From Cyanophyceae cyanobacterium (GTDB lineage Bacteria; Cyanobacteriota; Cyanobacteriia; Cyanobacteriales; JBHJGN01), in contig JBHJGN010000001.1 of the NCBI GenBank assembly GCA_050331735.1, positions 64,001 to 128,000 of the forward strand: DNA of 64,000 bases, in the 5' to 3' direction. The position numbers and the translations under genes were made by a program. Positions 6,204 through 60,792 of the stretch are shown one piece after another. Below the pieces are notes generated by a model that made no database searches, was not told the DNA's origin, and saw only the letters and a list, made by a program, of their open reading frames with translations. The first letter of the stretch is position 1, and each line of letters starts with the position of its first letter.

Positions 6204-7316
6204 ATGAACATTGCCGAACTGACCCAAGAGGAAACAATTCACTCCACAACAGATGAAAAAGAATTCACTCAGGCAGATGCTGGTGCTGATGATTCTGAGC
6301 TTGTTGAAGTTGAATTTTCTGACTTGGCTGACGATCTAGATAGTCCCCGATATAGTAAAACGAGATCTGAAGATACCGTTGGGGCTTTCTTTAAGGAAAT
6401 GGCGCGGTATCCTCTTCTCAAACCAGAAGAGGAAGTAGAGCTGGCTCATCGCGTTAAGTTTTTAGTTGAAACCGAAGAAAAACGGCAGCAGCTAAAAGAA
6501 GAGCTGAAGCGTCCTCCCACGAAAGCGGAATTGGCCGAATCTTTAGGCTTAAAGAGTGAGCGTCAGCTAGAGAATCAACTTTATCGTGGCCGGGTAGCGA
6601 AGCGGAAAATGATTCGCTCTAACCTCAGATTAGTCGTTTCCATTGCCAAGCGCTACCTCAATCGCGGAGTTCCGTTTCTCGATCTGATTCAAGAAGGAGC
6701 CATTGGATTGAACCGCGCCGCTGAAAAATTTGACCCCAACAAGGGGTATAAGTTTTCTACCTACGCTTACTGGTGGATTCGGCAAGCGATCACACGCACG
6801 ATCGCTAACGATGCTAGAACCATTCGTCTCCCGATTCACATTGTTGAAAAGCTGAACAAGCTCAAAAAGGCGCAGCGCAATCTGAAGCAGAAACTTCAGC
6901 GCAATCCGTCTGAAGAAGAGCTCGCCGAAGAGATGGAAGTGTCTCGTTCTCAACTGCGCCAGCTCCTCCAGCTACGCCGACAGTCGCTGTCCCTCAATCA
7001 CCGCGTCGGGAAAGGAGAAGATACGGAATTAGTGGACCTGCTGGAGGACAACGAGCTTCAGTCTCCCGAAGAAAGCATGAACGAAGCAATGCTGCGTCAG
7101 GAAATTTTAGACGTGCTGTGCGACGTGCTCACAGAGCGAGAAAAAGATGTTATCTCTCTCCGCTATGGCTTGTCGTCTAGTCAACCCCATACCCTAGAAG
7201 AAGTTGGAGGCATTTTTAACTTATCCCGCGAGCGAGTGCGGCAAATCCAGAGTAAGGCCATGCGCAAGCTGCGGCGTCCACAAGTGGCTCGTCGGCTCAA
7301 AGGGTGGTTAACGTAA
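6204..7316 (+). CDS. sigE: Group 2 RNA polymerase sigma factor (RpoD family, SigE-like)
   Basis: NLRLVVSIAKRY, DLIQEG, YKFSTYAYWWIRQ and a C-terminal HTH (SRERVRQ). It lies divergent from priA. The SigE subtype is a recollection-based inference. Confidence 0.8.
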   Translation: MNIAELTQEETIHSTTDEKEFTQADAGADDSELVEVEFSDLADDLDSPRYSKTRSEDTVGAFFKEMARYPLLKPEEEVELAHRVKFLVETEEKRQQLKEELKRPPTKAELAESLGLKSERQLENQLYRGRVAKRKMIRSNLRLVVSIAKRYLNRGVPFLDLIQEGAIGLNRAAEKFDPNKGYKFSTYAYWWIRQAITRTIANDARTIRLPIHIVEKLNKLKKAQRNLKQKLQRNPSEEELAEEMEVSRSQLRQLLQLRRQSLSLNHRVGKGEDTELVDLLEDNELQSPEESMNEAMLRQEILDVLCDVLTEREKDVISLRYGLSSSQPHTLEEVGGIFNLSRERVRQIQSKAMRKLRRPQVARRLKGWLT

Positions 7317-47609: not shown

Positions 47610-48155
47610 CTATTCAAACACAGGCGGCCACAGCTCAGATACCTGCACTTCCCATCCCGGCAACAGATTGGGAAGGCTCAAAACATCTCCATCCTTTAGA
47701 GCGAGCGGTTCTTGCCCCGCTCGCCGAATTTCTAACCACCGCTGCTCTGGATGAATCAAAATGCCCACCTGAGTTCCCTGCTCCAGGAACTGATCAATTT
47801 TTGCTCGCAGCCCTGTCAGGCTATCGGTGGGCGATTTTACCTCGACCATTAAATCCGGGGCTAACTCCGCAAAGCTGCGCGGACTGCGCCGTAGCCGTTC
47901 TGCTTGCACAAACGATACATCCGGGGCGCGGGTATCTGAATTAGGCAAGTTAAATCCGGCCCCGGCCCCCGTCACTCGTCCAAGCTGGCGCGGTCTAGTC
48001 CAATTTGCAAGTTGCCGCCCAAACTCAAACGCCACCTCATCAGACTCATAGCCAGATGGACTCATCAGCACAATTTTCCCATCAATCAGTTCAACTCGAT
48101 AGCGATCGTCAAGCTGACGCTGCACCTTCTCCAAATCTTTGGCTGTTAACCCCAT
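47610..48155 (-). CDS. Uma2 family protein
   Basis: ELIDG, RAPDVSFV, APDLMVEVKSP. Confidence 0.92.
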   Translation of the reverse strand: MGLTAKDLEKVQRQLDDRYRVELIDGKIVLMSPSGYESDEVAFEFGRQLANWTRPRQLGRVTGAGAGFNLPNSDTRAPDVSFVQAERLRRSPRSFAELAPDLMVEVKSPTDSLTGLRAKIDQFLEQGTQVGILIHPEQRWLEIRRAGQEPLALKDGDVLSLPNLLPGWEVQVSELWPPVFE

Positions 48156-48291
48156 TGCTACCTCTTGTAGACGCGCGAGCTACTTGCGATCTATTCTATG
48201 TAACTTTTGAAGTGCTGAGCGATCGCTGACTGGGGCGACTCTCGCCTGAGTGAGGCTAATCTCACCGGGAAAGCTAGGATCGTGATGTAGC

Positions 48292-48978
48292 ATGCAGGAA
48301 ACTAAGATGGTTGCTAATCAATCTAGGACTCCCGTTATCCCACCGCTGGAGAATGGCGATCGCCTCACTCGTCCTGAATTTGAACGGCGTTATGCGGCAA
48401 TGACCCACCTTAAAAAGGCAGAATTAATTGAAGGAGTTGTCTACGTGCCAGCAGCATTAAGGTTTGGCAACCATGCAGAACCTCATGGTCAGCTCATTAC
48501 CTGGTTAGGAGTTTACCAAGCCTTTACTCCTAGAGTCAGAGTTGGCGATAATCCTACTGTTCGTCTGGATTTAGATAACGATCCTCAGCCCGATGCCGTA
48601 CTGCTCATCGATGGCGGACAAGCTAGCATTAGTGAGGACGATTACATTGAAGGTGCGCCCGAATTAGTCGTGGAGGTTGCTGCCAGTAGTGCTGCCTACG
48701 ATCTGCATGACAAAAAACGAGCCTATAGACGCAATGGGGTGCAGGAATATCTTGTCTGGCGAGTCTACGAACAGGAACTAGATTGGTTTCGCCTGGAAGC
48801 AGGAGAGTTTGTGAGACTACAGCCAGATGCCCAAGGAGTTGTTCGTTCTAGAGTCTTTCCGGGTTTATGGTTAGCCACAGCCTCATTATTATCCGGAGAA
48901 ATGGACCAGGTATTAGCAATGTTGCAGCAGGGACTAAATACGCCAGAACATCAAGATTTTGGGCAACGTTCTGATTAA
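48292..48978 (+). CDS. Uma2 family protein
   Basis: LENGDRL, PQPDAVL, APELVVEVAASS, GVQEY. Confidence 0.92.
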   Translation: MQETKMVANQSRTPVIPPLENGDRLTRPEFERRYAAMTHLKKAELIEGVVYVPAALRFGNHAEPHGQLITWLGVYQAFTPRVRVGDNPTVRLDLDNDPQPDAVLLIDGGQASISEDDYIEGAPELVVEVAASSAAYDLHDKKRAYRRNGVQEYLVWRVYEQELDWFRLEAGEFVRLQPDAQGVVRSRVFPGLWLATASLLSGEMDQVLAMLQQGLNTPEHQDFGQRSD

Positions 48979-49102
48979 ACCGGATCGCAACTGCGAAAAA
49001 GTAGCATGCGGTATAAGTTAAAGTGATCGCTTTATTGTATTAAGTAAAGAGACAACTGCTCCCATTTCTCAACGGACATGCTGCACAAATAGAGAGAACT
49101 GT

Positions 49103-49175
49103 AACCTTTACCCCTTCCCCTTTCCCCTTTACCCCTGACACCGCATCTGTAGCTCTACTTTCCAGAAATGGAATG
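49103..49175. repeat. Heptamer tract plus MITE-like end
   Basis: CCTTTAC/CCTTCCC/CTTTCCC units, then GACACCGCATCTGTAGCTCTACTTTCCAGAAATGG. Confidence 0.6.
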
Positions 49176-49176
49176 T

Positions 49177-49737
49177 CTATACCTGTAGCTCAAATCCAGG
49201 TAATACCTCTTCTCCAGAAACAATAGCTGGCAGTTGTCTCACTGCTACCGTTTCTGGTCGGTAGATTTCTACTGTGGCATCTTGCAGATTGATCAGCCAG
49301 CCTAAACGCAGTCCGTTAGTAATATATTCCTGCATTTTCTCTTGCAGGGAAACCAGGCGATCGCTTTGTGACCGCAATTCAATGACAAAATCGGGAACCA
49401 GGGGAGGAAATTTTTTCCGCTGTTCTAGGGTTAAAGCTTCCCATCGATTCAATTTGACCCAAGCCGCGTCAGGCGATCGCTTAGCACCATTAGGTAAGAT
49501 AAAAATCGTGGAAGAGCTAAACACTTTTCCTAATTTAGCTTGACGATTCCAAATACTTAAATCTGTAATCAGATCTGCTTCTTGACTACCGCTTTCTCCT
49601 CCGACTGGTGGCACGATAATTAATTCTCCTGCTGCACTCATCTCCAGGCTGAGATCGCGATTAGCCATACATAACTGATAAAATTGCTCGTCGGTTAAAT
49701 GAGCAATTGGTTCTAGATTGAGCACAACCGTATTCAT
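49177..49737 (-). CDS. Uma2 family protein
   Basis: RSPDAAWV, PDFVIELRS, LGWLI. ATG 49737 preferred. Confidence 0.92.
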   Translation of the reverse strand: MNTVVLNLEPIAHLTDEQFYQLCMANRDLSLEMSAAGELIIVPPVGGESGSQEADLITDLSIWNRQAKLGKVFSSSTIFILPNGAKRSPDAAWVKLNRWEALTLEQRKKFPPLVPDFVIELRSQSDRLVSLQEKMQEYITNGLRLGWLINLQDATVEIYRPETVAVRQLPAIVSGEEVLPGFELQV

Positions 49738-49815
49738 AAAAATTGCCCTCGTGCTTTGCTCATAATTATAAAATTGAGGCAAGACCCGTGAAACTCCTTC
49801 AAACAGGAATGACTC

Positions 49816-50424
49816 ATGGTACAGACCCCATTCAAACCCATCACGCTAGAAGAGTTTCTCCAACTGCCAGAAACTGAGCCTGCTAGCGAATATATTGCTG
49901 GGCAAATCATCCAAAAGCCGATGCCCCAGGGAAAGCACAGCACTATTCAAACTGAGTTTTCTACGACCGTAAATGTCAGTCTTAAACCTCGACAGGTTGC
50001 AAGAGCGTTTTCAGAGCTACGCTGTACGTTTGGTGAACGCTCAATCGTTCCAGATGTATCTGTGTTTACCTGGCAGAGAATTCCACGGGACAAAAATGGG
50101 GAGGTTTCTAATACCTTTCTCTTGTCTCCTGACTGGACAATTGAAATCCTGTCGCCCGACGGGCGACACAAGCCCCCGAATCGAATTCGGGGGTCGCGCC
50201 CTTATCAGAGCCAAACAAAAGTAACCAAGAACACTTTGCACTGTCTTAATCATGGTACTCAAATGGGTTGGCTAATCGATCCTCATGAGCAAACGGTTTT
50301 TGTTTATCGTCCCAAACAGCAGACGGAAGTATTTGATGAACCAAAACAGCTACTTCCATTTCCCTCCTTTGCTCAGGAGCTAAATTTGAGTGTAGGGGGT
50401 GTGTTTGGTTGGTTATTTGAGTAG
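49816..50424 (+). CDS. Uma2 family protein with in-frame 15-aa insertion
   Basis: IVPDVSV, PDWTIEILSPD[GRHKPPNRIRGSRPY]QSQTKV, GWLIDP. Confidence 0.9.
   Translation: MVQTPFKPITLEEFLQLPETEPASEYIAGQIIQKPMPQGKHSTIQTEFSTTVNVSLKPRQVARAFSELRCTFGERSIVPDVSVFTWQRIPRDKNGEVSNTFLLSPDWTIEILSPDGRHKPPNRIRGSRPYQSQTKVTKNTLHCLNHGTQMGWLIDPHEQTVFVYRPKQQTEVFDEPKQLLPFPSFAQELNLSVGGVFGWLFE
50161..50205. repeat. 45-nt palindromic (REP-like) insertion inside a CDS
   Basis: GGGCGACACAAG-CCCCCGAAT-CGA-ATTCGGGGG-TCGCGCCC-TTAT forms a nested hairpin. Confidence 0.8.
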
Positions 50425-50513
50425 TGCCGTTTAGACAGTTGTACATTATCGCTCTTGCAATGCAGCGCCAGCCTACAAGCTAAAATTATTGACAAGCGTA
50501 CCTTGAGAATAAA

Positions 50514-51092
50514 ATGACTACAACCAGTCGGCAGTTCACCTTAGCGGAATATCTAACCTATAGTGACAGCACAGAGGGACATTACGAGTTGGTTAATGGA
50601 GAACTCATAGAAATGCCGCCTGAGTGGGACTTTAACAACCAAATTGCCTCCTATCTATTTGCAGAATTGTTGAAGGTTGTTTCAAGTCGTCTCATTCGCT
50701 GCAAGGGAATCGAAATCGTTGTGGGGGGAGTGCGAGCAACGACGAGAGTGCCAGACTTAATGGTATTGAGTGAAGAATTACGACTAGCATTACGACAATC
50801 ACGGCGGGGAACAATTACGTTGGATATGTTGCCCCCGGTACTAGTGGTGGAGGTAGTCTTGCCGGGAAAAGAAAATGAAGATCGGGACTATCGCTACAAG
50901 CGTTCAGAATATGCAGCACGAGGAATTGCTGAATATTGGATTGTCGATCCAGAACGCGGTCAGGTAGTAGTGTTGACGCTGGTGGATGGGTTGTATGAGG
51001 AGGCCATTTATCAAGGAAATGAACACTTGGTTTCCAAGTCTTTTCCAACTTTAAAGCTAACCTCAGAGCAAGTTCTTCGAGGAGGAGAATGA
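50514..51092 (+). CDS. Uma2 family protein
   Basis: YELVNGEL, RVPDLMV, VEVV, KRSEYAARGIAEYWIVDP. Confidence 0.92.
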   Translation: MTTTSRQFTLAEYLTYSDSTEGHYELVNGELIEMPPEWDFNNQIASYLFAELLKVVSSRLIRCKGIEIVVGGVRATTRVPDLMVLSEELRLALRQSRRGTITLDMLPPVLVVEVVLPGKENEDRDYRYKRSEYAARGIAEYWIVDPERGQVVVLTLVDGLYEEAIYQGNEHLVSKSFPTLKLTSEQVLRGGE

Positions 51093-51133
51093 CCGATGAA
51101 AAAGGGCAAGAGGGCTGAAGAGTCCTCGCGCCA

Positions 51134-52006
51134 CTACACAGAACTACACAGTACTCGAAAACCGAAATCGTTGTAGCGGTTGTTCGGACTGCCGCTGTAG
51201 CGAAACGCGGAACGGCAGTATTTTGGAGCTTCGTACCACGCACCACCGCGCAACGGACTATTAGCGCTTTCATCATCAGATGACCAAGGTTTATTGCCGT
51301 TCTTCTTTAGTTCCTCTGGTTTTTCTTCATAGCTATCATGCCAGTGATCTAAACACCACTCCCAAACATTCCCGTGCATGTCGTATAGACCAAATCTATT
51401 CGCTACTTTGAAATAGCCCGCTTCGGTTGTTTCTTCTCTATCGATTCCTCGCGGTCCTCGACCGTAGTTTCCTAAATAAGTCTCGCTGTCTGTTTTAAGG
51501 TCTGTACCTCTGTAGTTTGCTAGATCGGTTGTAATTGTTTCTCCAAAGTGAAATGGCGTTGTCGTTCCCGCACGGCAGGCATATTCCCATTCGGCTTCGG
51601 TCGGCAATCGATATTCTCTTTCTGTGTGGCGAGAGAGGCGATCGCAAAACTCGACCGCTTGATACCAACTAACCTGTTCTACAGGGCGGTTGTCTCCCTT
51701 AAATTCTGACGGATCTGGCTCCAGCTTTCGCTTAACTTGAGGGAAAGAAGCTACAGTTCGCCACTGGGCCTGAGTAACAGGATGCATTCCTAAACAAAAA
51801 TCGCTCAGGCTAACTTCATGCTGTGGCTCTTCAGAAGATTCATGTCCAATTTCGGTTGCAGGAGAACTCATCTGAAAGCTTCCTCCAGGGATCTCGACCA
51901 TTTTCAGCAGAATCCCGTTGCCTAAATCTTCAGCGTAGTAACGTCCAGAGCGATTCTGATAGCGAAGGTTGACGCGATATTTTACTTCACCTTGGGAGAC
52001 AGTCAT
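51134..52006 (-). CDS. FGE-sulfatase/CLec-fold protein with DGR-type variable C-terminus
   Basis: [51 protein letters not shown]...GFRV. Confidence 0.92.
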
Positions 52007-52019
52007 AGTTAGCTTTCTG

Positions 52020-52136
52020 ACCTCTGATTATTCGTTCTCCGAGGATGAATTTGTGGTCTCTGGGGAGACGGTTGAGGATGGGAACGTACCACTGAATGAG
52101 ATCGTAGGTTTTCTGAATAATGGGTAGCTCTTCCAT
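52020..52136 (-). pseudogene. avd: Truncated DGR accessory variability determinant (Avd), N-terminal ~39 aa only
   Basis: [39 protein letters not shown] resembles the N-terminus of cyanobacterial Avd. The frame continues for 10 unrelated residues to a stop at 51987, overlapping the next gene. Confidence 0.82.
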
Positions 52137-52229
52137 GCAGAATTTGAAAAATAAGCGATCGTGCTGCACACGAGATCGTTAAGGAAAAATGGTAAAGGGT
52201 AGAGGGCAAAAGGTCAAGAGAGCAAAGGG

Positions 52230-54920
52230 CTAAAGAGTCCTCGCGCCAAAACACACAACACGAAAACCGACAACGTAGAAGCGGGCGTCCGGATCGTTGT
52301 TGCGGCGAATCGCAGAACGGCAGAGCTCTGGAAGGTTGTACCACGAACCACCGCGCAACGTCCTTAAAGCGCTTTCATCGTCAGTTAACCAAGGTTTATT
52401 GCCATTTTGCTTGAGTCCCTCCGGTTTTTCTTGATAGCTATTGTGCCAATGGTCTAAACACCATTCCCACACATTTCCGTGCATGTCATATAAGCCAAAA
52501 GCGTTAGCCGGATATTCTCCGACTGAACTTGTTTCGTTTTCCTTGCTTTCAGAATAGTTCACTAGCTCTGGCGTAACTGTGTCCCCGAAATAATAGGATG
52601 TTGTTGTCCCCGCACGGCAAGCATATTCCCACTCGGCTTCAGTGGGCAAGCGATATTCTCTGTTGGTATGGCGAGAGAGGCGATCGCAAAACTCAACCGC
52701 GTCGTACCAGCTCACGTTCTCGACTGGGCGGTTGTCGCTCTTAAAATCTGATGGATCTGTCTCCAGCGCTCGATTGACTTCGGGTAAAGAGGCAACGACT
52801 TGCCACTGCGCCTGAGTAATTGGATATTTACTGATGAAGAAATCAGAAACCGTTACCTCATGTTGCGGTTCTTCATCGCGATAGTGACCCGCTTCATCTT
52901 TGGGAGATCCCATCAAAAAGCTTTCTCCCAAAACCGCCACCATCTCTAGCTGAATCTCATCGCTAATCCGCTCTATCCGCTGCCAGCCGAAGCCAGAAGA
53001 CTTTGTAATTAGCCATTCTTGTTCGCGTCCAAACGAAAACCACGACCTCGGCTTTGGCTCAATCTTGGCTGTTTCAAACTCGAACCGTTGCAGAGCTTCT
53101 AGCTCAACTTCTTCAACCACAAACTCATGAGGCAACCATTGCGGCCATTCCTCTGGGATAAGTTGCGCTGTCTCGAACTCCAGAATTTTTAGCGTCGGGA
53201 ATCCGGGGAACTGGGTTTCTTCCCACGAACCCATCCGAAATTCTCGCGCGAGTTCTCTGTACTCGCCTCCAAGACGTTCAAGAATACTTGCCGTTACGCT
53301 TGCAAACGACTTTAAACTCCCGTCTTCCGACTCGTTTTGCTCAGGGGACAATAAAACCGACTTAAACTGCTGCAACGAGGCATAGCCTAACCGCTGTGCT
53401 ATATATAACGACACGGCATTGATAATTTCAATGGCATCCACCGGGGGCAGCATCTTTAATAGAGCTTCCCGTACCCCACGAACAAAATCGTATTGCACCA
53501 ACTCTGGATCGATATCGCCAGCTTGGTCGGGTAACCGATGAAGCAGTCCGCTCAAAAAAACTTCTGCCACTGGCAAAGGCGACATTTTTGACATCATTGA
53601 GGCCCGGATTAAGCGCATGACTGGCAGAGTAATGACCGGAGCGGCGGCCAGCAGAGTGATTAACTGCCGTGCCTGTGGCGATGACAGCATCCGAAACTGC
53701 TGAATGCGATCGCGGGATAACTTGGCTAGCTCTTCTCCCAGCCACTGCTCGCGTTCAGCCTCGGTTAACTCTCCCGGCGGACGTTCCCGAAAGCGCTTGT
53801 TTACCTCGTCCTCAGACGACGGTGCTTGTGGGACACTCCCTCCCTGCTGGGGCAATAAAAATCCCGCCGTCACCTCTTGACCATCACCGGAGAGCACTTT
53901 GCTCCAGGCGGCCACGTCTTCGGTGGCTGAAGTAAACACCGGAACGGGGATGCCGCGAACCTCCTCTTCCTCTACAAAAAGGTCGAGTCCGATCGCTTCA
54001 GCTTCCAGTTGAGAGTTGACAGCACCGGAGAGGGAATTACGCAGAGCAACATAAGTACCGCGCCCCAGGGCCGTTCGCTCCCACATCCATTCCGGCAGCA
54101 CCTGCCAGATCGCCGTTGGCATTGCGCCTGCCCACAGCTTCAAAACCGCTAACATCCTGTCATCCCACCAGTAATCAGCGACGCAATCGCTTAGAATAAT
54201 CACGATGCGCCGACCGTTAGGAGAAACCAGTTCTCGGGCCGTATGCGGGGGGCGATCTGGATGCGATCGCAATACAATTGCCCCAGCCTCGGTTTCGAGT
54301 TCCCAGCGTCGAAGGTCGCGAAAGGCTCCGTAATGCTTTAAGAGTTGTTGGAGATCGTCGGCTAAGCGCTTCCACAAATTCATCGAGGAGCTGCGATCGA
54401 CGATGAGGGCGATCTCAAACCACGGTTCGAGGTTTGGTTGAAGCACTGGCGACCAAACCCTAGTTTCCACGATGCGATCGACCGTTTCCGCCTCATCAAT
54501 CTGCTCTCCTAACCCCGTTGGAACTTGCTTGAGAAGCGGTCGCAGCGCCCGAATTAAATCCATTGGGTTGTCCAGCAGCGGCGGATCGGCAACCCACAGA
54601 GGAAGCGCTTTTTGAGGAAGGGGCTTAGCCGTCGGACGTGGAGGAGGTGGAATTATGGGAATCTGTGGATCTGGTGGCTCATTATCTTTTCCATTGACTT
54701 TGCTATCGCGAGGTGGAGCAGGTGGAGGTGGAGGTGGTGGAGGGCCTGGATCAGGTAGAGGTGAAGGGTCTGGATCAGGTAGAGAAGTTTCTTCCGGCTG
54801 TTTTTCCTCCTGTTTGTCTCTTGGCTGAATGCGCGTTGTCAACCACAGGACTTCTGCAATATTAGTTGCATCGAGCTGCTCGTCTTTGGCTAAGGCAGCA
54901 ATCAGCCGTTCGACATTCAT
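52230..54920 (-). CDS. vWA (SAV_2336-like N-domain) + FGE-sulfatase/CLec fusion; DGR target
   Basis: IAEVLWL N-terminus, Pro-rich linker, MIDAS DRSSS and ILSDC, LPEWMWERTAL; C-terminal [15 protein letters not shown]...RGGSW...GFRVVC. Confidence 0.88.
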   Translation of the reverse strand: MNVERLIAALAKDEQLDATNIAEVLWLTTRIQPRDKQEEKQPEETSLPDPDPSPLPDPGPPPPPPPPAPPRDSKVNGKDNEPPDPQIPIIPPPPRPTAKPLPQKALPLWVADPPLLDNPMDLIRALRPLLKQVPTGLGEQIDEAETVDRIVETRVWSPVLQPNLEPWFEIALIVDRSSSMNLWKRLADDLQQLLKHYGAFRDLRRWELETEAGAIVLRSHPDRPPHTARELVSPNGRRIVIILSDCVADYWWDDRMLAVLKLWAGAMPTAIWQVLPEWMWERTALGRGTYVALRNSLSGAVNSQLEAEAIGLDLFVEEEEVRGIPVPVFTSATEDVAAWSKVLSGDGQEVTAGFLLPQQGGSVPQAPSSEDEVNKRFRERPPGELTEAEREQWLGEELAKLSRDRIQQFRMLSSPQARQLITLLAAAPVITLPVMRLIRASMMSKMSPLPVAEVFLSGLLHRLPDQAGDIDPELVQYDFVRGVREALLKMLPPVDAIEIINAVSLYIAQRLGYASLQQFKSVLLSPEQNESEDGSLKSFASVTASILERLGGEYRELAREFRMGSWEETQFPGFPTLKILEFETAQLIPEEWPQWLPHEFVVEEVELEALQRFEFETAKIEPKPRSWFSFGREQEWLITKSSGFGWQRIERISDEIQLEMVAVLGESFLMGSPKDEAGHYRDEEPQHEVTVSDFFISKYPITQAQWQVVASLPEVNRALETDPSDFKSDNRPVENVSWYDAVEFCDRLSRHTNREYRLPTEAEWEYACRAGTTTSYYFGDTVTPELVNYSESKENETSSVGEYPANAFGLYDMHGNVWEWCLDHWHNSYQEKPEGLKQNGNKPWLTDDESALRTLRGGSWYNLPELCRSAIRRNNDPDARFYVVGFRVVCFGARTL

Positions 54921-56080
54921 TAGTCGGCCTCACTTAAGCGCTTAAACAGAAGCTGTCTGAGCTTCTCCATCTCCATTTCGCTAGGACCAGGATCGCGAGT
55001 AATCAGGTAAACGGCATTGAGCAACTGGTCAGTGGCGCGATCGGCTTTATTGCCTCCTTCGAGAAACTTTTTAATGAGTGGTTCGAGCTGCGGTTTCAGC
55101 GTTTTCCAGTTATCTTCGCCAAAACGGGACTCGATAATCGGATAGAGCGATTCGAGGGTTGGATCGGGCATTCTGACTCGCAGACAGCGCCGCCGAAACG
55201 CCGGAGGAAAGTCGCGTTCGCCATTACTGGTCATCACCACGAAGGGGAACTCGCAGCACTCGATGCGTCCTTCTGTAATGGTCGCGCTTAAATCTTTATC
55301 TTCGGTTAAAACAGTAACCTGCCTCTCAATTCTTTTGCGTCGTACCAGTTCAGGAATCTCAAACTGACCTTCCTCAAACAGATTGAGCAGATCGTTCGGA
55401 AGATTGAGATCGCTTTTATCGATTTCGTCAATGAGAAGAACTCGCGGTCGCCGGGAGGAAAGGAAAGCGGTTCCGACTGGTCCGAGTTGGATATAGTCCC
55501 CCAAGCTGCGTTCCTCTCGACTCGGTTTCTCTTGACTCTCTAATTGGACAATTGCCTCGCTGTCGGTTTGGTCGAGCTGACTGCCTCGCTGTCGAGCCAT
55601 CAGTTCTAAAACTTGGGAGGTCGTTGTCTCGCTGCGGGTTTGATCGAGCTGAGCATCTTGCAGCCGCGCGATCGCATCATAGCGATAAAGGGCATCTTTA
55701 AGGGTCGCTCGCGCCGTTACGGGCCAGACTAAAACTGGACCGAGTTGAAGTTCGTAGGCGACTGCATAGGCTAAAGACGTTTTTCCCGAACCGGGAACTC
55801 CCGTGATCAGCAAGGGACGGCGTAGATGCAAAGCTGCATTAACAGCATCAACAATTTCTGAATCACCATTTTTATCTTTCTGAATGCGAAAACTCTTTCC
55901 CCTCTCAATAGCACGGTTTTCTTCCTTCGCTCTTTCATGCAGCTTGTCCCAGCGTTTGTTGTCTTTCTTCTCATCGACTTGTTCGCGGGGAAGAAACTCT
56001 CGCCAGGGAGGGCGATCGGGAATTTCTACGAGTGGATTGGGGGTGTCGCCGCAGTTGCCGTGAAAGTGTTTCCAAGTCAT
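54920..56080 (-). CDS. MoxR-family AAA+ ATPase
   Basis: LRRPLLITGVPGSGKTS, LLIDEIDK, TSNGERDFPPAFRRRC. Its stop overlaps the vWA start (TAATG). Confidence 0.92.
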   Translation of the reverse strand: MTWKHFHGNCGDTPNPLVEIPDRPPWREFLPREQVDEKKDNKRWDKLHERAKEENRAIERGKSFRIQKDKNGDSEIVDAVNAALHLRRPLLITGVPGSGKTSLAYAVAYELQLGPVLVWPVTARATLKDALYRYDAIARLQDAQLDQTRSETTTSQVLELMARQRGSQLDQTDSEAIVQLESQEKPSREERSLGDYIQLGPVGTAFLSSRRPRVLLIDEIDKSDLNLPNDLLNLFEEGQFEIPELVRRKRIERQVTVLTEDKDLSATITEGRIECCEFPFVVMTSNGERDFPPAFRRRCLRVRMPDPTLESLYPIIESRFGEDNWKTLKPQLEPLIKKFLEGGNKADRATDQLLNAVYLITRDPGPSEMEMEKLRQLLFKRLSEAD

Positions 56081-56101
56081 AGGAGCTATAGAGGTAAATA
56101 A

Positions 56102-57574
56102 TCAAGGAGCAACGCGATCCGGTGAGTAGAGGGGACGTTCGTTAGTAGGAATCGTTGGCAAGCGATCGGGGTTGTCGCAAAGAATTCCTAGAGTCTGAAT
56201 AGGATTAGCTGATGTTGCTAGTCTTTTTTCCTGAATTGACTGAGCCAGTTGTGCAACTTCTCTGAGGTTGTCTGCGATGAGAAGAGAATCGAACGCCTCA
56301 CAAATCTCGTCTCGATCGAAGTCCGCACAGTGCGTCCACAAAACAATCGGCATCTGGGAGAGGATTAATTGCTTCAAGGCTTCCTTGCGAGCAACAGAAT
56401 CATCCGGTAAACCCGAAATTACTTTTGCTCCTACCTTTCCAGAAATCAACTGCCCTGCAAAGGTATCTTGGCTACTAGAAAAATCAACTTCAATAAACTC
56501 CTGGCAGACTGAATTAGCTGTCAGGCACTTTTGCAGACGTTGCCAACCTTCTCTTACTTTCAGAAGCAGAAGTGGATGAGTAGCTCGTTCAAGCGAACGA
56601 ACCAGTAATCTATAGCGATCGCCTAGCTTAGAGATTTCTTGCAACTCATCTAAAGCTTCCCATTCAAAGACTTGTTCTTCTAGAAGATCCCTGGGGAGAA
56701 AAATTTCCAGAACAGCCTGATGGGAGATTTCTTTTTCGAGCAATATCGATGCAGCTTGGTCTAGCCACGAATACAAAGGATTTGCCAATAGCTTGTCTAC
56801 GTCCACCAGCTTACCGTTTGGGAGTTCGCAGGAAAATCCTCTCATTCCGTCAGAATCGCTATCGAGGGGGTGTGGTTGTCCTGCCAAGTGCAGCTCGGCA
56901 AATAACTGTACTGACTTGGCTTTACGCACAAGGGCAACTAAGACATAACCGTGGAGGGAAGTTAGCTTTGGGGGAACGGTGATGTTATGCTTCCTAACAA
57001 GATTGTCTCGCCAACTTCTCAGCTCATCAAAATTTCTTTGAGTTTGCTTGGTGATAATTTCGATGGCACTATCTATAAAGGCAACGGTCAGTTCAGGGCT
57101 GTCGTACTTACTAAAAATTTGGCGAAAACTCTTCAAGTCATTGAGGGATGGATGATCTCGGAAAACCTCCCTTAGCGATCGCTGGTAATGAGAGAGAAAT
57201 GCAGCTTTGCACGCGACTTCTAGCGCGGCGCGATCACCTGGTTGAAATTGATTTAATACCCAATCCCACTCCTGCTGCGAAATTTTTTGTGTTGGCGCAG
57301 CGACTATGGAGCCATCCCTCAGCTCGGCTATTTTAGGGTCGTCAGGATGACTGACAGAGACCTTCAAGAATAGTTCGTCAAGGCGATTTTCTCGTTTTGC
57401 CCATTTGATCAGATCGAATGCTTTATCTCCTAAATCCCCTGATTCAGGAGCAATGGTATTTAGCTCCTCCACATTCATCAGATCGCTTAATCTCTCCAAC
57501 TTTTTTGATGTAGGGTAGCAATTAATTATTGCCTGACGAAATTTTTCTCTTCTTTCCCCATTCCACTTCCTCAT
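56102..57574 (-). CDS. EAD1 + vWA-MoxR associated protein (VMAP-C-like)
   Basis: N-terminal helical domain (AIINCYP...AFDLIKWAKRENRLDEL); C-terminal EIFLPRDLL..W...LG..Y.LLVRSLER, PIVLW, LCDNPDRLP. Confidence 0.75.
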   Translation of the reverse strand: MRKWNGERREKFRQAIINCYPTSKKLERLSDLMNVEELNTIAPESGDLGDKAFDLIKWAKRENRLDELFLKVSVSHPDDPKIAELRDGSIVAAPTQKISQQEWDWVLNQFQPGDRAALEVACKAAFLSHYQRSLREVFRDHPSLNDLKSFRQIFSKYDSPELTVAFIDSAIEIITKQTQRNFDELRSWRDNLVRKHNITVPPKLTSLHGYVLVALVRKAKSVQLFAELHLAGQPHPLDSDSDGMRGFSCELPNGKLVDVDKLLANPLYSWLDQAASILLEKEISHQAVLEIFLPRDLLEEQVFEWEALDELQEISKLGDRYRLLVRSLERATHPLLLLKVREGWQRLQKCLTANSVCQEFIEVDFSSSQDTFAGQLISGKVGAKVISGLPDDSVARKEALKQLILSQMPIVLWTHCADFDRDEICEAFDSLLIADNLREVAQLAQSIQEKRLATSANPIQTLGILCDNPDRLPTIPTNERPLYSPDRVAP

Positions 57575-57581
57575 AAGCTAG

Positions 57582-57995
57582 CTATCGTTCTAATGGTGGT
57601 AACAATGGAATTGCACTGGCGTAAATGAGCAGTAAAAATGACCCGTAAAACGGCTGATAAAAATCTAGCGTCTCAAATGGTCCGCCGATGGCAAATACCC
57701 AAACGGCAAACGACGCACAAGATAGCCAAATTTGCTGCCAAGCCGTTGGTTTACCCGATTCCGCCGTCTGTTTTCGCGTCCAGAAATAGGAAAATACGAG
57801 TCCAGCTCCAAACAGCATCCAGAGGAACAAAGGTTTTGGGATATCGTTTCCCTGGCTTTGAATTAAGCCGTTGCCTGCCAGCCACAGCCCGACTACATCG
57901 GCAGGAATATACTTAAGGAGACGGTCGAAATAACCATCAATACTTTTATTTTCTCCTCCTGACTGGTACTGCTGCCAGACGATACGACGGCTCAT
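57582..57995 (-). CDS. Small integral membrane protein (~4 TM), unknown function
   Basis: ATG at 57995 preceded by GAGGAG; DRLLKYIPADVVGLW, WVFAIGGPF and four hydrophobic segments. Confidence 0.8.
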   Translation of the reverse strand: MSRRIVWQQYQSGGENKSIDGYFDRLLKYIPADVVGLWLAGNGLIQSQGNDIPKPLFLWMLFGAGLVFSYFWTRKQTAESGKPTAWQQIWLSCASFAVWVFAIGGPFETLDFYQPFYGSFLLLIYASAIPLLPPLER

Positions 57996-58002
57996 CTTCT
58001 CC

Positions 58003-59061
58003 TCACTGCAAAAATGGTGCGATTTCTTGGTAGATCGATTGAAATAAAATGCCCTCGCGGATGCTCCCAAAACCCCGCGACATCGATAGGTGATGCAGCG
58101 CTATCAACTGCCAGCGCTCGTTAAAGCAGGGCGAACCGCTCGATCCTTTCTTTGTCCGGTTCACGTACCAGATGCGATCGCGTTCTAGAGCGAAACCGAC
58201 GACTCCGCTATCGCTGAGGGAAACCTGCATCAGCTCTCCTTCGGGATGCTGAAGAACATATAAACCTTTTTTAGGTTCTGGTAAGGTAGCAGTAGAAACA
58301 TAAACGAGAGGTTTAATGTGGTTTGCTTCAGCGATCGCTGCTTCAGCCCGCAATAAGACGTAATCGAGACTTGATATTGGGCTAAAGGCAACGACGGGCT
58401 TTTCCACTGCTACCGCATAGACCTCCGGGCGCACGGGAGTTTCGCGTTCTTCACTAACGTAACCAAACTCAAAACAGAGCGATCGCGCTAGGTGGTTGAG
58501 GCGTTTGGAATCTACTGTTTCCTCTGTCAGAACGTGATAATTGGTCAGAATTAAATCGGCAGCAACCAGGACTCCGGTTCCGGTGCGATCGCTATCGGTA
58601 AAAACTACTTTGCAAATTGAATCAGCACACTGCAAACCTCGCTTAAGCTGACCAACATCTGTCTCAAAAGAAAGCGCTCGCGCTGGGAAGAAGGCTTCGA
58701 GTTCAGTATCGGTCGTCGGACCTTGCCAGTCGAATGGTCGGCTAATGACTTCTGTGATCCCTTCTCCGTTGAGAACGAGATGCTCTTGCAATAAGTCCTG
58801 AACTCGCTGATAAAACTGACGAACATCTGGATTGTTAGACTTTTGCTGATAGAGAGAGACAATCAGCTCAACTAACTTGTTTTCCCTCCTCGCCCAATCG
58901 ACAAGATCGAACGCAGCATCGGTCGTATCGCTCTCACTGGCAATTTCATTGAGATCGACATCCAAACTATCAGCAAAAATTTGGATCTTTTTGCGGGAGG
59001 CAAAAGCTTTCGTAATCGCATTGCGGAGCTGATTGCGATCGCTACCCGATAACTTCAACAT
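58003..59061 (-). CDS. EAD1 + trypsin-like serine protease
   Basis: N-terminal LSGSDRNQLRNAI...AAFDLVDWARRENKL; catalytic triad motifs LTNYHV, LDYVLL, GSSGSP; QHP and ALHH; GGAGG RBS. Confidence 0.88.
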   Translation of the reverse strand: MLKLSGSDRNQLRNAITKAFASRKKIQIFADSLDVDLNEIASESDTTDAAFDLVDWARRENKLVELIVSLYQQKSNNPDVRQFYQRVQDLLQEHLVLNGEGITEVISRPFDWQGPTTDTELEAFFPARALSFETDVGQLKRGLQCADSICKVVFTDSDRTGTGVLVAADLILTNYHVLTEETVDSKRLNHLARSLCFEFGYVSEERETPVRPEVYAVAVEKPVVAFSPISSLDYVLLRAEAAIAEANHIKPLVYVSTATLPEPKKGLYVLQHPEGELMQVSLSDSGVVGFALERDRIWYVNRTKKGSSGSPCFNERWQLIALHHLSMSRGFGSIREGILFQSIYQEIAPFLQ

Positions 59062-59324
59062 CAGCGACCTCCAAAACAGGATTTTAGGATGTTGAACCGC
59101 CGCTCGTTCTCTGCGACCCGTTTACTCAAAGCATCTGCTGGCTGCAACTGTTATGGAAAAGAATATCATTCATGGGTGAGAAGTCAAATAAGAATGCCTT
59201 TTAGTGCAATTAATTGCGGTCAAAGGAAAATTTAGATCTGCTCGGTCATGTTTATGTCTGCATCCGAAAACCCCTCAAAACGGGGTAGCTTTAAAGCATT
59301 ACTGACCTTGAATGATTCACCACA

Positions 59325-60143
59325 ATGACAAAACTAATTATCCGACGGCAGCAAGGAAAAGCCCGGTACTACACTGAGGATCTAGGGGGTGGAGTCGGAC
59401 TAGACATGATTCTTATCCCTAGCGGTAGTTTCTTGATGGGAACGGAAGATCGAGAAATCGACAGACTTTGTGAAACTTACAGCAGTGAGCATTTTAGAAC
59501 TGAAGGACCACAACATCGAGTAACCCTCCCCACTTTCTTTTTTATAGGACGTTATCCCATTACTCAAGCACAGTGGCGAGCCGTCGCTTCTTTACCTTTA
59601 ATCAATCGGAAGCTAGAGCCAGATCCATCAATATTTGAGGGAGACAATCGTCCAGTCGAGAACGTGAGCTGGTACGAAGCGGTAGAGTTTTGCGATCGCC
59701 TCTCTCGCCACACCGGAAGGGAATATCGGTTGCCCACCGAAGCTGAGTGGGAATATGTTTGCCGTGCAGGGACAACAACACCCTATTATTTCGGGGACAC
59801 AATCACGTCAGAGTTGGCAAACTATGAAAGAAATCGAGAAGAGACAAGTCCAGTCGAAGAATACCCAGCCAACGCTTTTGGCATTTCTGATATGCACGGG
59901 AATGTGTGGGAGTGGTGTCTAGACCACTGGCACGATAGCTATAAAGACACACTAGAGGAATTAAAGCAAAATGGCAATAAACGGCTGACTGGTAAGAAAA
60001 GCGCTAATAGAACGTTGCGCGGCGGTTCATGGTCCTACACTCCAGAGGCCTGCCGTTCTGCGTTTCGCAACTACGACTATCCGGACCTCCGCAACGACAT
60101 TATCGGTTTTCGAGTTGTGTGTAGTGGCGCGAGGACTCTTTAG
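59325..60143 (+). CDS. FGE-sulfatase/CLec-fold protein with DGR-type variable C-terminus
   Basis: [31 protein letters not shown]...CRSA...GFRVVCSGARTL. Confidence 0.92.
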   Translation: MTKLIIRRQQGKARYYTEDLGGGVGLDMILIPSGSFLMGTEDREIDRLCETYSSEHFRTEGPQHRVTLPTFFFIGRYPITQAQWRAVASLPLINRKLEPDPSIFEGDNRPVENVSWYEAVEFCDRLSRHTGREYRLPTEAEWEYVCRAGTTTPYYFGDTITSELANYERNREETSPVEEYPANAFGISDMHGNVWEWCLDHWHDSYKDTLEELKQNGNKRLTGKKSANRTLRGGSWSYTPEACRSAFRNYDYPDLRNDIIGFRVVCSGARTL

Positions 60144-60282: not shown

Positions 60283-60792
60283 ATGCAGGGGCAATTCACC
60301 GTGAAGACTCGTTCAGCCACCCAAGTACTCTTCGAGACCGATTATTACCAATGGACGCAAGGAACTGTTAAGCATCTCCAGAACCGGGATGTTGAAAACC
60401 TAGATTGGGAACATTTAATCGAGGAAGTCGAGCTATTGGGCATTAGCGCTAAGAATACCGTTAAAGGTTCTCTAGAAGTGCTACTCGTGCATCTTCTGTA
60501 TTACCAATACTGGTATAACCGCCGGGAATACTTAACCGAAGGATGGGCGGATGAAATCGAAGAATTTCGCTCCCAATTTGAAAAGAGCCTTGCATCTCGG
60601 AGCCTCTATAATTACATGCTAACGATTCTCGACCAAACCTACGCCAAAGCAAAGCGGAGAGCAGTGAGAAGGTTTGTCAGGGCTAAGCTCATACCTCCCC
60701 AGTTTCCCGACCAATGCCCCTACAGCATCGCGCAACTATTCGATGAAAACTACTTTCCAGAGTTTAAGTCAGAGCTAGAATCAAGCGACTGA
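60283..60792 (+). CDS. DUF29 family protein
   Basis: LFETDYYQW, LDWEHLIEEVE, LLVHLL, FPDQCPY. Confidence 0.9.
   Translation: MQGQFTVKTRSATQVLFETDYYQWTQGTVKHLQNRDVENLDWEHLIEEVELLGISAKNTVKGSLEVLLVHLLYYQYWYNRREYLTEGWADEIEEFRSQFEKSLASRSLYNYMLTILDQTYAKAKRRAVRRFVRAKLIPPQFPDQCPYSIAQLFDENYFPEFKSELESSD

Follow-up and report, generated by a model that had tools for sequence, protein, structure and literature searches.

The window analysed here, a 64,000-nucleotide stretch of DNA from a Cyanophyceae cyanobacterium (contig JBHJGN010000001.1, positions 64,001 to 128,000), carries a minus-strand operon that encodes an EAD1-tagged protease, a small membrane protein, a VMAP protein, an ATPase and a vWA protein ending in a lectin-fold (CLec) domain. 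Two stand-alone CLec genes accompany the operon. The locus is probably a VMAP ternary conflict system of the cyanobacterial kind that has lost its diversity-generating retroelement (DGR) and whose three binding specificities are now inherited unchanged. The domain matches support, at the level of predicted products, a complete VMAP ternary core (VMAP-C protein, AAA+ ATPase and vWA protein) together with the trypsin-like protease, and they support the assignment of the three CLec genes to the DGR-target type. The CLec sensors underwent diversification in the past and look fixed at present, as the avd gene is cut and the assembly contains no DGR-type reverse transcriptase (RT), no template repeat (TR) and no second Avd. 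The initial annotation had called these sensors hypermutable, a description that these results do not support.

The genes and elements concerned are the following, with the matches that define them. All Pfam matches quoted are above the curated cut-offs.

58003-59061, minus strand: EAD1 and trypsin-like serine protease, 352 aa (Pfam EAD1 at residues 3-87, Trypsin_2 at residues 161-322)
57582-57995, minus strand: membrane protein, 137 aa, from an ATG start, 3-4 hydrophobic segments by hydropathy, no named family
56102-57574, minus strand: EAD1 and VMAP-C protein, 490 aa, the VMAP component (Pfam EAD1 at residues 3-87, VMAP-C at residues 254-469)
54920-56080, minus strand: AAA+ ATPase of the AAA_5 type (MoxR-like), 386 aa (Pfam AAA_5)
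52230-54920, minus strand: vWA (SAV_2336 N-terminal type), helical middle and CLec/FGE-fold protein, 896 aa, former DGR target (NF041121 at residues 17-512, FGE-sulfatase at residues 659-889)
52233-52358, minus strand: VR_B, the former variable repeat (VR) at the 3' end of the vWA-CLec gene (paralogue differences by codon position and by adenine column of the L008 template)
52026-52136, minus strand: 5' stub of avd, about 37 codons, within the 49-aa open reading frame (ORF) 51990-52136 (NF033474, PF22296 bAvd)
51134-52006, minus strand: stand-alone CLec gene A, 290 aa, former VR at about 51137-51253 (FGE-sulfatase E 4.2e-49, synteny with L008 and L023)
59325-60143, plus strand: divergent stand-alone CLec gene C, 272 aa, former VR at about 60015-60140 (FGE-sulfatase E 1.6e-52)
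59062-59324, no strand: divergent intergenic region, 263 nt, with one promoter-like site at 59187-59160 on the minus strand

Loss of the retroelement

The 49-aa ORF at 51990-52136 matches the model NF033474 (DivGenRetAVD) with E 7e-12 over profile positions 1-35 of 104, in agreement with the avd fragment named in the initial annotation, and it also matches PF22296 (bAvd) with E 2e-5. Over its first 35-37 residues it shares 72-76% identity with the complete Avd proteins of the related loci L008 and L023, and the gene is cut after about codon 37. About 1.6 kb, comprising the rest of avd, the RT gene and the TR, has been deleted from the window, as seen by comparison with L008 and L023, which show the same row with a whole avd, an RT gene and a second CLec gene (the TR being mapped in L008). 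The size of the deletion is taken from the spacing in L008.

A 618-nt contig from a separate assembly of the sequencing run X1 spans the junction (51631-52248) with 0 mismatches at a depth of 54. An assembly error confined to this genome does not account for the deletion. Run X1 is probably the source sample and hence provides no independent population. In the same run, each of the three VRs is found in a single clean contig, which is mild evidence against ongoing variation.

The remaining parts of a DGR were searched for in the whole assembly (5.57 Mb in 99 contigs, scored 99.98% complete). The assembly contains one RVT_1 match, an RT-Cas1 fusion, and tblastn with the RTs of L008 and L023 returned only this gene, at 27-28% identity, and no DGR-type RT. 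No second Avd was found in the assembly, where the Avd models and the Avd proteins of L008 and L023 match the stub only, and PF05635 gave nothing over its cut-off against the genome. A TR was likewise not found in the assembly: blastn (word size 7), run with the three VRs and the L008 TR as queries, returned the ends of the CLec genes and no non-coding copy. On the evidence of the assembly, the organism would be without a working DGR.

The RT-Cas1 fusion lies at a contig end (C26:1-1657, locus L005), which suggests a CRISPR adaptation module linked to an RT. A group II intron protein was considered for this lone RT and was rejected, the gene being an RT-Cas1 fusion.

The same genome holds a second VMAP system (C37:54025-62438, corresponding to L088:8025-16438), composed of two short CLec genes, a Trypco1 gene, a trypsin-VMAP-M1-VMAP-C gene, an AAA_5 ATPase gene and a vWA-CLec gene. 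This system is also without avd and RT. The genome thus has two VMAP systems, each without a DGR. The second system has a Uma2 gene and two P450 genes next to it.

Past diversification of the CLec genes

The CLec fold of the vWA-CLec protein is identified by the FGE-sulfatase family PF03781 (E 1.6e-55, residues 659-889) and by similarity to TvpA (2y3c; E 4.8e-30 by profile and 1.1e-11 by Foldseek). The three CLec genes, as well as the EAD1-trypsin and EAD1-VMAP-C genes, had been named in the initial annotation and are all recovered by Pfam. The CLec genes are paralogues with 75-84% identity in DNA; gene C and the CLec part of the vWA gene are 79-84% identical. In the comparisons that follow, A is the CLec gene at 51134-52006, B the vWA-CLec gene and C the CLec gene at 59325-60143.

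Outside the VR, B and C differ 49, 39 and 78 times at codon positions 1, 2 and 3, respectively, over 205 codons, whereas in the last 42 codons, which form the VR, the corresponding numbers are 14, 7 and 3. Positions 1 and 2 together against position 3 thus give 21 vs 3 in the VR and 88 vs 78 elsewhere (Fisher p 9e-4). The same test yields p 4e-5 for A and B and p 1e-3 for A and C. The adenine dependence was tested by proxy, with the template repeat of L008 as reference, there being no own TR in the assembly. The VRs of the window vary at 21 of the 26 adenine columns of this TR and at 12 of the 76 other columns (Fisher p 3e-9). Together, these nucleotide patterns show a signature of past adenine-specific diversification at the C-termini of all three CLec proteins. 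In the rest of the genes the paralogue differences fall mainly at third codon positions, as under purifying selection.

B and C differ at 5 of the 76 non-adenine columns, whereas the pair of VRs in the active DGR of L008 differs at 0 of 76. This hints that some time has passed since the last homing, but the hint is weak, given that the lost TR may have had other adenines. The dating of the DGR loss by the non-adenine differences was dropped for the same reason, the possible extra adenines of the lost TR.

CLec gene A carries a 10-nt insertion just after its conserved GFRV codons (about 51134-51160), and its product ends in ...LCSSV, whereas the tail of the other two is ...VCxGARTL.

The signalling core

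The VMAP protein (56102-57574) contains an EAD1 domain (40.7 bits) and, at residues 254-469, a VMAP-C domain (PF20028, 76.1 bits vs a cut-off of 27). Comparison of this protein with the sequences in PDB gave no solved relative.

The best Pfam family of the ATPase is AAA_5 (35.8 bits vs a cut-off of 22). The Walker A motif is placed at G94-T101 (GVPGSGKT at 94) and the Walker B motif around D218-E219 (LLIDEID at 215), and both motifs are invariant among 11 homologues. The protein is 62-64% identical to the ATPases of L008 and of L102, a locus of the nearest genome in the set searched. With the single sequence, the PDB search returned no match, and with the 11-sequence profile it returned generic AAA+ matches only. 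The label MoxR-like is based on AAA_5 and on the gene context: of the MoxR named in the initial annotation, the AAA_5 ATPase with its Walker motifs stands, and membership of the MoxR clade in particular is putative. Among the 9 loci whose vWA match reaches 300 aa, every one but L010 has the ATPase gene immediately before the vWA gene; the contig of L010 starts inside the gene. Furthermore, the order VMAP, ATPase and vWA is also present in L008, L009, L017 and L102, so that the synteny anticipated for other genomes was found.

Residues 17-512 of the vWA-CLec protein match the NCBIfam model NF041121 (SAV_2336_NTERM) with E 2.3e-115. On the other hand, the Pfam vWA families have no match in residues 1-647 even at E up to 10, and a profile of 20 vWA-CLec homologues found no vWA match among the PDB sequences. 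The full-length model of the 896-aa protein has a pLDDT of 63.6, and the Foldseek rows shown for it are all CLec/FGE-family structures. Because of this, the vWA part was modelled alone. The model of residues 135-365, built with a 19-row alignment, has a mean pLDDT of 86.7, and its best Foldseek rows are vWA domains (CMG2/ANTXR, TRAP and NorD) with E of only about 1e-3 and probability 1.0; the E-value of the NorD vWA is 8e-3. When the model was compared with 48,161 chains by VIA-align, the CMG2 vWA came first (Z 8.8, root-mean-square deviation 3.3, 134 residues). Further matches are the metal ion-dependent adhesion site (MIDAS) domain of MDN1 (Z 8.1), the collagen VI vWA (8.1) and the NorD vWA (7.5), and the vWA/MIDAS matches range from 8.8 to 7.2.

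The model also positions a DxSxS...D motif. D175-R-S-S-S179 immediately follows the first strand, and a later strand ends in D245, which belongs to the invariant SDC motif. In vWA domains, MIDAS residues occupy those strand positions. On the NCBIfam match, the domain model and the motif, and with scores that are middling, the region of residues 135-365 is accepted as a vWA domain. The vWA assignment made initially is thereby kept on NF041121, the vWA-like model and the motif, and finds no counterpart in the Pfam vWA families.

The protease and the membrane protein

The protease (58003-59061) combines EAD1 (44.9 bits) with Trypsin_2 (61.2 bits). Residues H176 (in TNYH), D233 and S308 (in GSSGSP) are invariant in 9 of the 9 aligned homologues and are presumed, by motif, to form the putative catalytic triad. 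EAD1 is common to the core protein VMAP and to this separate effector, and with the profile used these are the only 2 EAD1 matches in the genome, both in the operon. Because there is no other match, the two EAD1 domains fit a private adaptor pair, through which the protease may be recruited by EAD1-EAD1 contact. A predicted complex of residues 1-100 of VMAP (5-row alignment) and residues 1-100 of the protease (9-row alignment) scored 0.19, the mark being 0.32, which is neutral on binding.

The 137-aa membrane protein shows by hydropathy three strong hydrophobic segments and one weak segment. The four transmembrane helices initially proposed are therefore plausible by this measure, with three segments clear and the fourth weak. 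The protein has no Pfam family over the cut-off and no match in NCBIfam or PADLOC, and the ESM Atlas search returned unnamed clusters only. It has 181 homologues (75-240 aa) that are up to 76% identical, and because of these figures it is called the best-conserved gene of the row. A match is present in 11 of the 151 genomes of the order. The EAD1-trypsin gene lies directly upstream of the membrane protein gene, at about 7-20 nt, in 8 of the 10 loci with substantial matches (L090-L097 out of L090-L099). Often an EAD1 protein comes after the pair, namely VMAP-C in L093 and L096 and CHAT in G005, the nearest genome mentioned above. The pair of genes is conserved by this synteny and is one of two minor new points of the analysis.

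It is tentatively suggested that the protease and its small neighbour might make up a two-gene killing module, with the membrane protein as the target of the recruited protease or as the means through which it acts. This module is without description in the main text of the founding paper (Kaur et al. 2020), where a term search did not find the membrane protein. In PADLOC the core proteins have no system-level match; the protease has one match at E 9e-4 and the ATPase has weak P-loop matches.

Relatives and apparent recurrence of the loss

The related loci were obtained by an alignment-based scan of one genome per species; a search of genome contigs with the N-terminal protein alone found nothing. 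L008 (an Elainellaceae metagenome-assembled genome) and L023 (Elainella saxicola E1) have the order ATPase, vWA-CLec and CLec of the window. EAD1-VMAP-C is present in L008, and extra EAD1 effectors and lectin domains are present in L023. The ATPases are 64% and 43% identical to that of the window in L008 and L023, respectively, and the N-terminal parts of vWA-CLec are 44% and 34% identical. Unlike the window, both loci keep avd (117-118 aa) and RT (363-380 aa) between two CLec genes, and by synteny CLec gene A is the counterpart of the CLec gene 3' of the RT. In L008 the TR occupies 6788-6918, in the interval that separates the RT from the short CLec gene, whereas the repeat search in L023 found no third copy. 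Compared with this TR, the two VRs of L008 are changed at 20 of its 26 adenine columns and at 0 of the 76 others, which is the textbook pattern of an active DGR.

G005 shares with the window, in its locus L102, the row EAD1-VMAP-C, ATPase (62%), vWA-CLec (48%) and CLec. In contrast with the window, which keeps the stub, the vWA-CLec and short CLec genes of G005 adjoin without an avd stub, and there is no DGR-type RT in that genome. The pair of EAD1-trypsin and membrane protein is present in G005 on another contig (L103), followed by an EAD1-CHAT protein. The core row of L102 (contig C5) lies apart from the row of EAD1-trypsin, membrane protein, EAD1-CHAT and CLec of L103 (C168), and therefore the EAD1 effector module can sit apart from the core.

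Among the 68 loci from the scan, 15 have an Avd match of at least 60 aa and 12 have an RT. Three loci hold a 5' avd stub only, without RT in the sequence fetched (L017:13913-14020, L053:10946-11056 and L054:3064-3150). These stubs come after a CLec target and are cut at different codons (about 32 to 55), and the stub of L017 has stop codons. The deletions look independent because the stubs end at different codons, and DGR loss looks recurrent from their distribution. Among five genomes of the same order with vWA-CLec systems, a DGR-type RT is present in three (G002, G010 and G015) and absent from two (G005 and G020). The recurrence of avd stubs in other genomes is the second minor new point.

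Operon layout and neighbouring genes

The ORF list and a spacing script give gaps of 7, 7, 21 and -1 nt along the row of EAD1-trypsin, membrane protein, EAD1-VMAP-C, ATPase and vWA-CLec. The last value is a one-base TAATG overlap at 54920 between the ATPase and the vWA-CLec genes. The tightly packed minus-strand operon reported at the outset, with gaps of 7-21 nt and one such overlap, is borne out by these measurements. The avd stub and CLec gene A come after the vWA-CLec gene, and CLec gene C (59325-60143, plus strand) is divergent and upstream of the row, also as first described. The reading frames of the five operon genes are uninterrupted, as are those of the three CLec genes.

The promoter of the operon likely lies in the intergenic region 59062-59324. 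The promoter scan (7 found vs 8.0 expected) and the terminator scan (12 vs 10.7) were both not above chance. A short GC-rich hairpin followed by a T-rich run is present at 52159-52173 on the minus strand, between the stop codon of vWA-CLec and the avd stub. DGR targets carry a hairpin 3' of the VR, and the one observed here could be such a hairpin or a terminator, with the terminator scan being overall no better than chance.

The flanks are occupied by ordinary or selfish genes, identified by Pfam as Uma2-family genes, DUF29, phosphoglucomutase and pyruvate kinase. At 47610-51092, directly next to the operon, a row of five genes on both strands belongs to the Uma2 family (putative restriction endonucleases). 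The DUF29 gene lies on the other side, at 60283-60792.

Proposed mechanism and alternative explanations

The mechanism proposed here follows Dore et al. (2024) and Kaur et al. (2020). The CLec surface at the C-terminus of the vWA protein would bind an intracellular ligand of an invader, and the two free CLec proteins may do the same. Subsequently, the ATPase would act on the vWA/MIDAS domain, as is supposed for MoxR-vWA pairs, and remodel or assemble a complex with VMAP-C. The EAD1 domain of VMAP would pair with the EAD1 domain of the protease and concentrate it. The protease, once switched on, would cleave its targets, of which the adjacent membrane protein may be one, and the outcome would be the arrest or death of the infected cell in the filament. 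The ligand is likely cytoplasmic because the three CLec proteins, inspected by eye, have no obvious N-terminal signal peptide or hydrophobic segment. Kaur et al. 2020 (PMC7159879) and Dore et al. 2024 (PMC10907252) differ on which component senses. The vWA-CLec protein is favoured as the sensor because of its CLec fusion and its former diversification.

Several points weigh against a fixed VMAP system of this kind. The steps of signalling are predictions for this type of system. In the PDB sequence searches the ATPase has no specifically MoxR match among solved structures. The fold scores of the vWA domain are middling, with a TIR domain (Z 8.2) and a CheY-like receiver (Z 7.5) interleaved among the vWA matches. 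As for fixation, contigs hide rare variants, so the clean contigs of run X1 are compatible with low-level diversification. The 99 contigs and the metagenome label of the only run with this DNA indicate that the assembly is probably a metagenome bin, and a DGR cassette acting in trans from an unbinned contig is possible. Moreover, the divergence at third positions is much lower inside the VR than outside (7% vs 38% for B and C), and therefore the last homing was recent relative to the age of the paralogues. This fits a rewriting of all three VRs from one TR well after the paralogue split.

These last points favour a DGR that is still active in trans, with RT, Avd and TR outside the assembly rewriting the VRs and the avd stub marking the loss of a single copy only. 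All three CLec genes keep the conserved 3' flank past the stop codon, a potential homing-signal site, and according to Kaur et al. 2020 (PMC7159879) TRs can in some systems lie elsewhere in the genome. Activity in trans is nevertheless quite unlikely: the searches of an almost complete assembly returned no DGR-type RT, Avd or TR, the second VMAP system is bare of avd and RT as well, the VRs occur in single clean contigs, and B and C carry non-adenine differences that the active pair of L008 does not show. Decay of the whole locus into a non-working relic, heading to pseudogenes after the loss of the DGR, would account for the cut avd, the missing RT and TR and the altered C-terminal tail of CLec gene A. 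It is highly improbable in view of the open ORFs of the operon and of the CLec genes, of catalytic and nucleotide-binding motifs that are intact and invariant among homologues, of the tight gene spacing and of the signs of purifying selection outside the VRs.

A different role for the same fixed receptors is also conceivable, namely a regulatory or developmental sensor pathway (signal transduction, homeostasis or programmed cell death in the filament) that became fixed after its tuning by the DGR, and that is not directed against invaders. Vallota-Eastman et al. 2020 (PMC7517822) suggested such a role for cyanobacterial DGR targets. The recurrent absence of the RT (G005 and G020, and the stubs of L017, L053 and L054) is easier to understand with a fixed ligand than in an arms race, and the core proteins match no PADLOC defence model. 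However, conflict systems as described by Kaur et al. (2020) typically have EAD1, VMAP and protease effectors, Uma2-family genes crowd the neighbourhood, and a related MoxR-vWA pathway of Actinobacteria is reported in a preprint to sense a parasitic epibiont. A developmental role is thus considered unlikely, and the conflict system with a lost DGR is retained as the best explanation.

The history that might have led to this state is a life cycle in which sensors armed with a DGR were diversified, useful specificities were fixed, the retroelement was deleted and the signalling operon was kept. This sequence of events is put forward tentatively and is on balance doubtful. Under it, the two VMAP systems of the genome, both bare of a DGR, would be two instances of its final stage. 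The stubs in three other cyanobacteria, together with G005 and G020, which lack an RT, suggest that the switch from adaptive-like to germline-fixed receptors is recurrent.

Relation to known systems

The locus belongs to a published kind and adds no new principle. The novelty claimed at first was overstated, given that the link between DGRs and VMAP systems is present in Kaur et al. 2020 and the idea of antigen sensors in Dore et al. 2024. The systems of Kaur, Burroughs, Iyer & Aravind (2020, eLife, PMC7159879) occur, as does the present one, in cyanobacterial hosts, with a vWA protein bearing a C-terminal FGS/CLec domain and its variable region, an ATPase (MoxR-like there, AAA_5 here), VMAP, and EAD1 on a core component and on a separate effector. 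According to that work, cyanobacterial VMAP systems have the FGS domain as their principal effector, in fusion with the vWA component; about 80% of them are DGR-linked, and EAD1 bridges core and effector proteins. The all-beta extension that precedes the CLec domain in those systems is also seen in the predicted model of the window protein. Unlike the DGR-linked systems of that work, the window has its DGR deleted down to the avd stub, with no TR or RT in the assembly.

In multicellular cyanobacteria, the majority of DGRs (clade 5E) seem to have VMAP-system sensors as their targets of diversification, and antigen sensing has been proposed for these (Dore et al. 2024, PNAS, PMC10907252). In the DGR 4, 5 and 7 loci of Thiohalocapsa PB-PSB1 and in those of the cyanobacterial RT clade 5E, vWA-CLec adjoins a MoxR ATPase, VMAP and a trypsin-like peptidase, much as in the window with its AAA_5 ATPase. 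A short second target consisting of CLec only is also shared, as is the proposed division of labour in which CLec senses, the ATPase relays and the VMAP-linked effector acts. The peptidase of DGR 7 is fused to VMAP, whereas that of the window is a separate EAD1-tagged protein. Furthermore, the loci of Dore et al. (2024) have a working RT and a TR with read-level variation, and the window assembly is without RT and TR.

The CLec-type variable protein all3226 of Nostoc/Anabaena has, like the genes of the window, no nearby RT (Vallota-Eastman et al. 2020, BMC Genomics, PMC7517822). It keeps leftover homology between TR and VR, whereas the window keeps an avd stub in a complete VMAP operon, with no RT or TR in the assembly. 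The same source puts forward that the diversification machinery is eliminated when a favourable variant has been reached.

MoxR-vWA pairs of the NorQ-NorD type, for which structures have been solved, resemble the window in placing an AAA+ ATPase beside a vWA/MIDAS protein, and differ from it in being without VMAP, EAD, protease and CLec; the ATPase of the window has no sequence match to them. The NorQ-NorD-type pairs are chaperones for the insertion of metal centres.

A 2026 preprint gives experimental evidence for a different MoxR-vWA threat-sensing pathway in Actinobacteria. The full-text literature search found no functional study of the cyanobacterial VMAP/CLec type, in line with the initial annotation, which knew of no functional characterisation. 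Modestly new are three things: that the deletion scar is preserved, that scars of this sort recur, and that protease and membrane protein form a conserved pair.

Significance

Few bacterial systems come as close to the diversification of immune receptors as VMAP ternary systems whose lectin-fold sensors are diversified by a DGR, and by the literature search these systems are so far a computational description. The present locus provides a clean and intact signalling core with a dated scar of DGR loss. Its three fixed receptor variants on one scaffold are handy for ligand hunting and for testing the chain from sensor to ATPase, EAD1 and protease without ongoing mutation. The pair of protease and membrane protein is a concrete and testable effector hypothesis. 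In addition, the recurrent loss of the retroelement bears on how long hypermutation stays useful to these bacteria.

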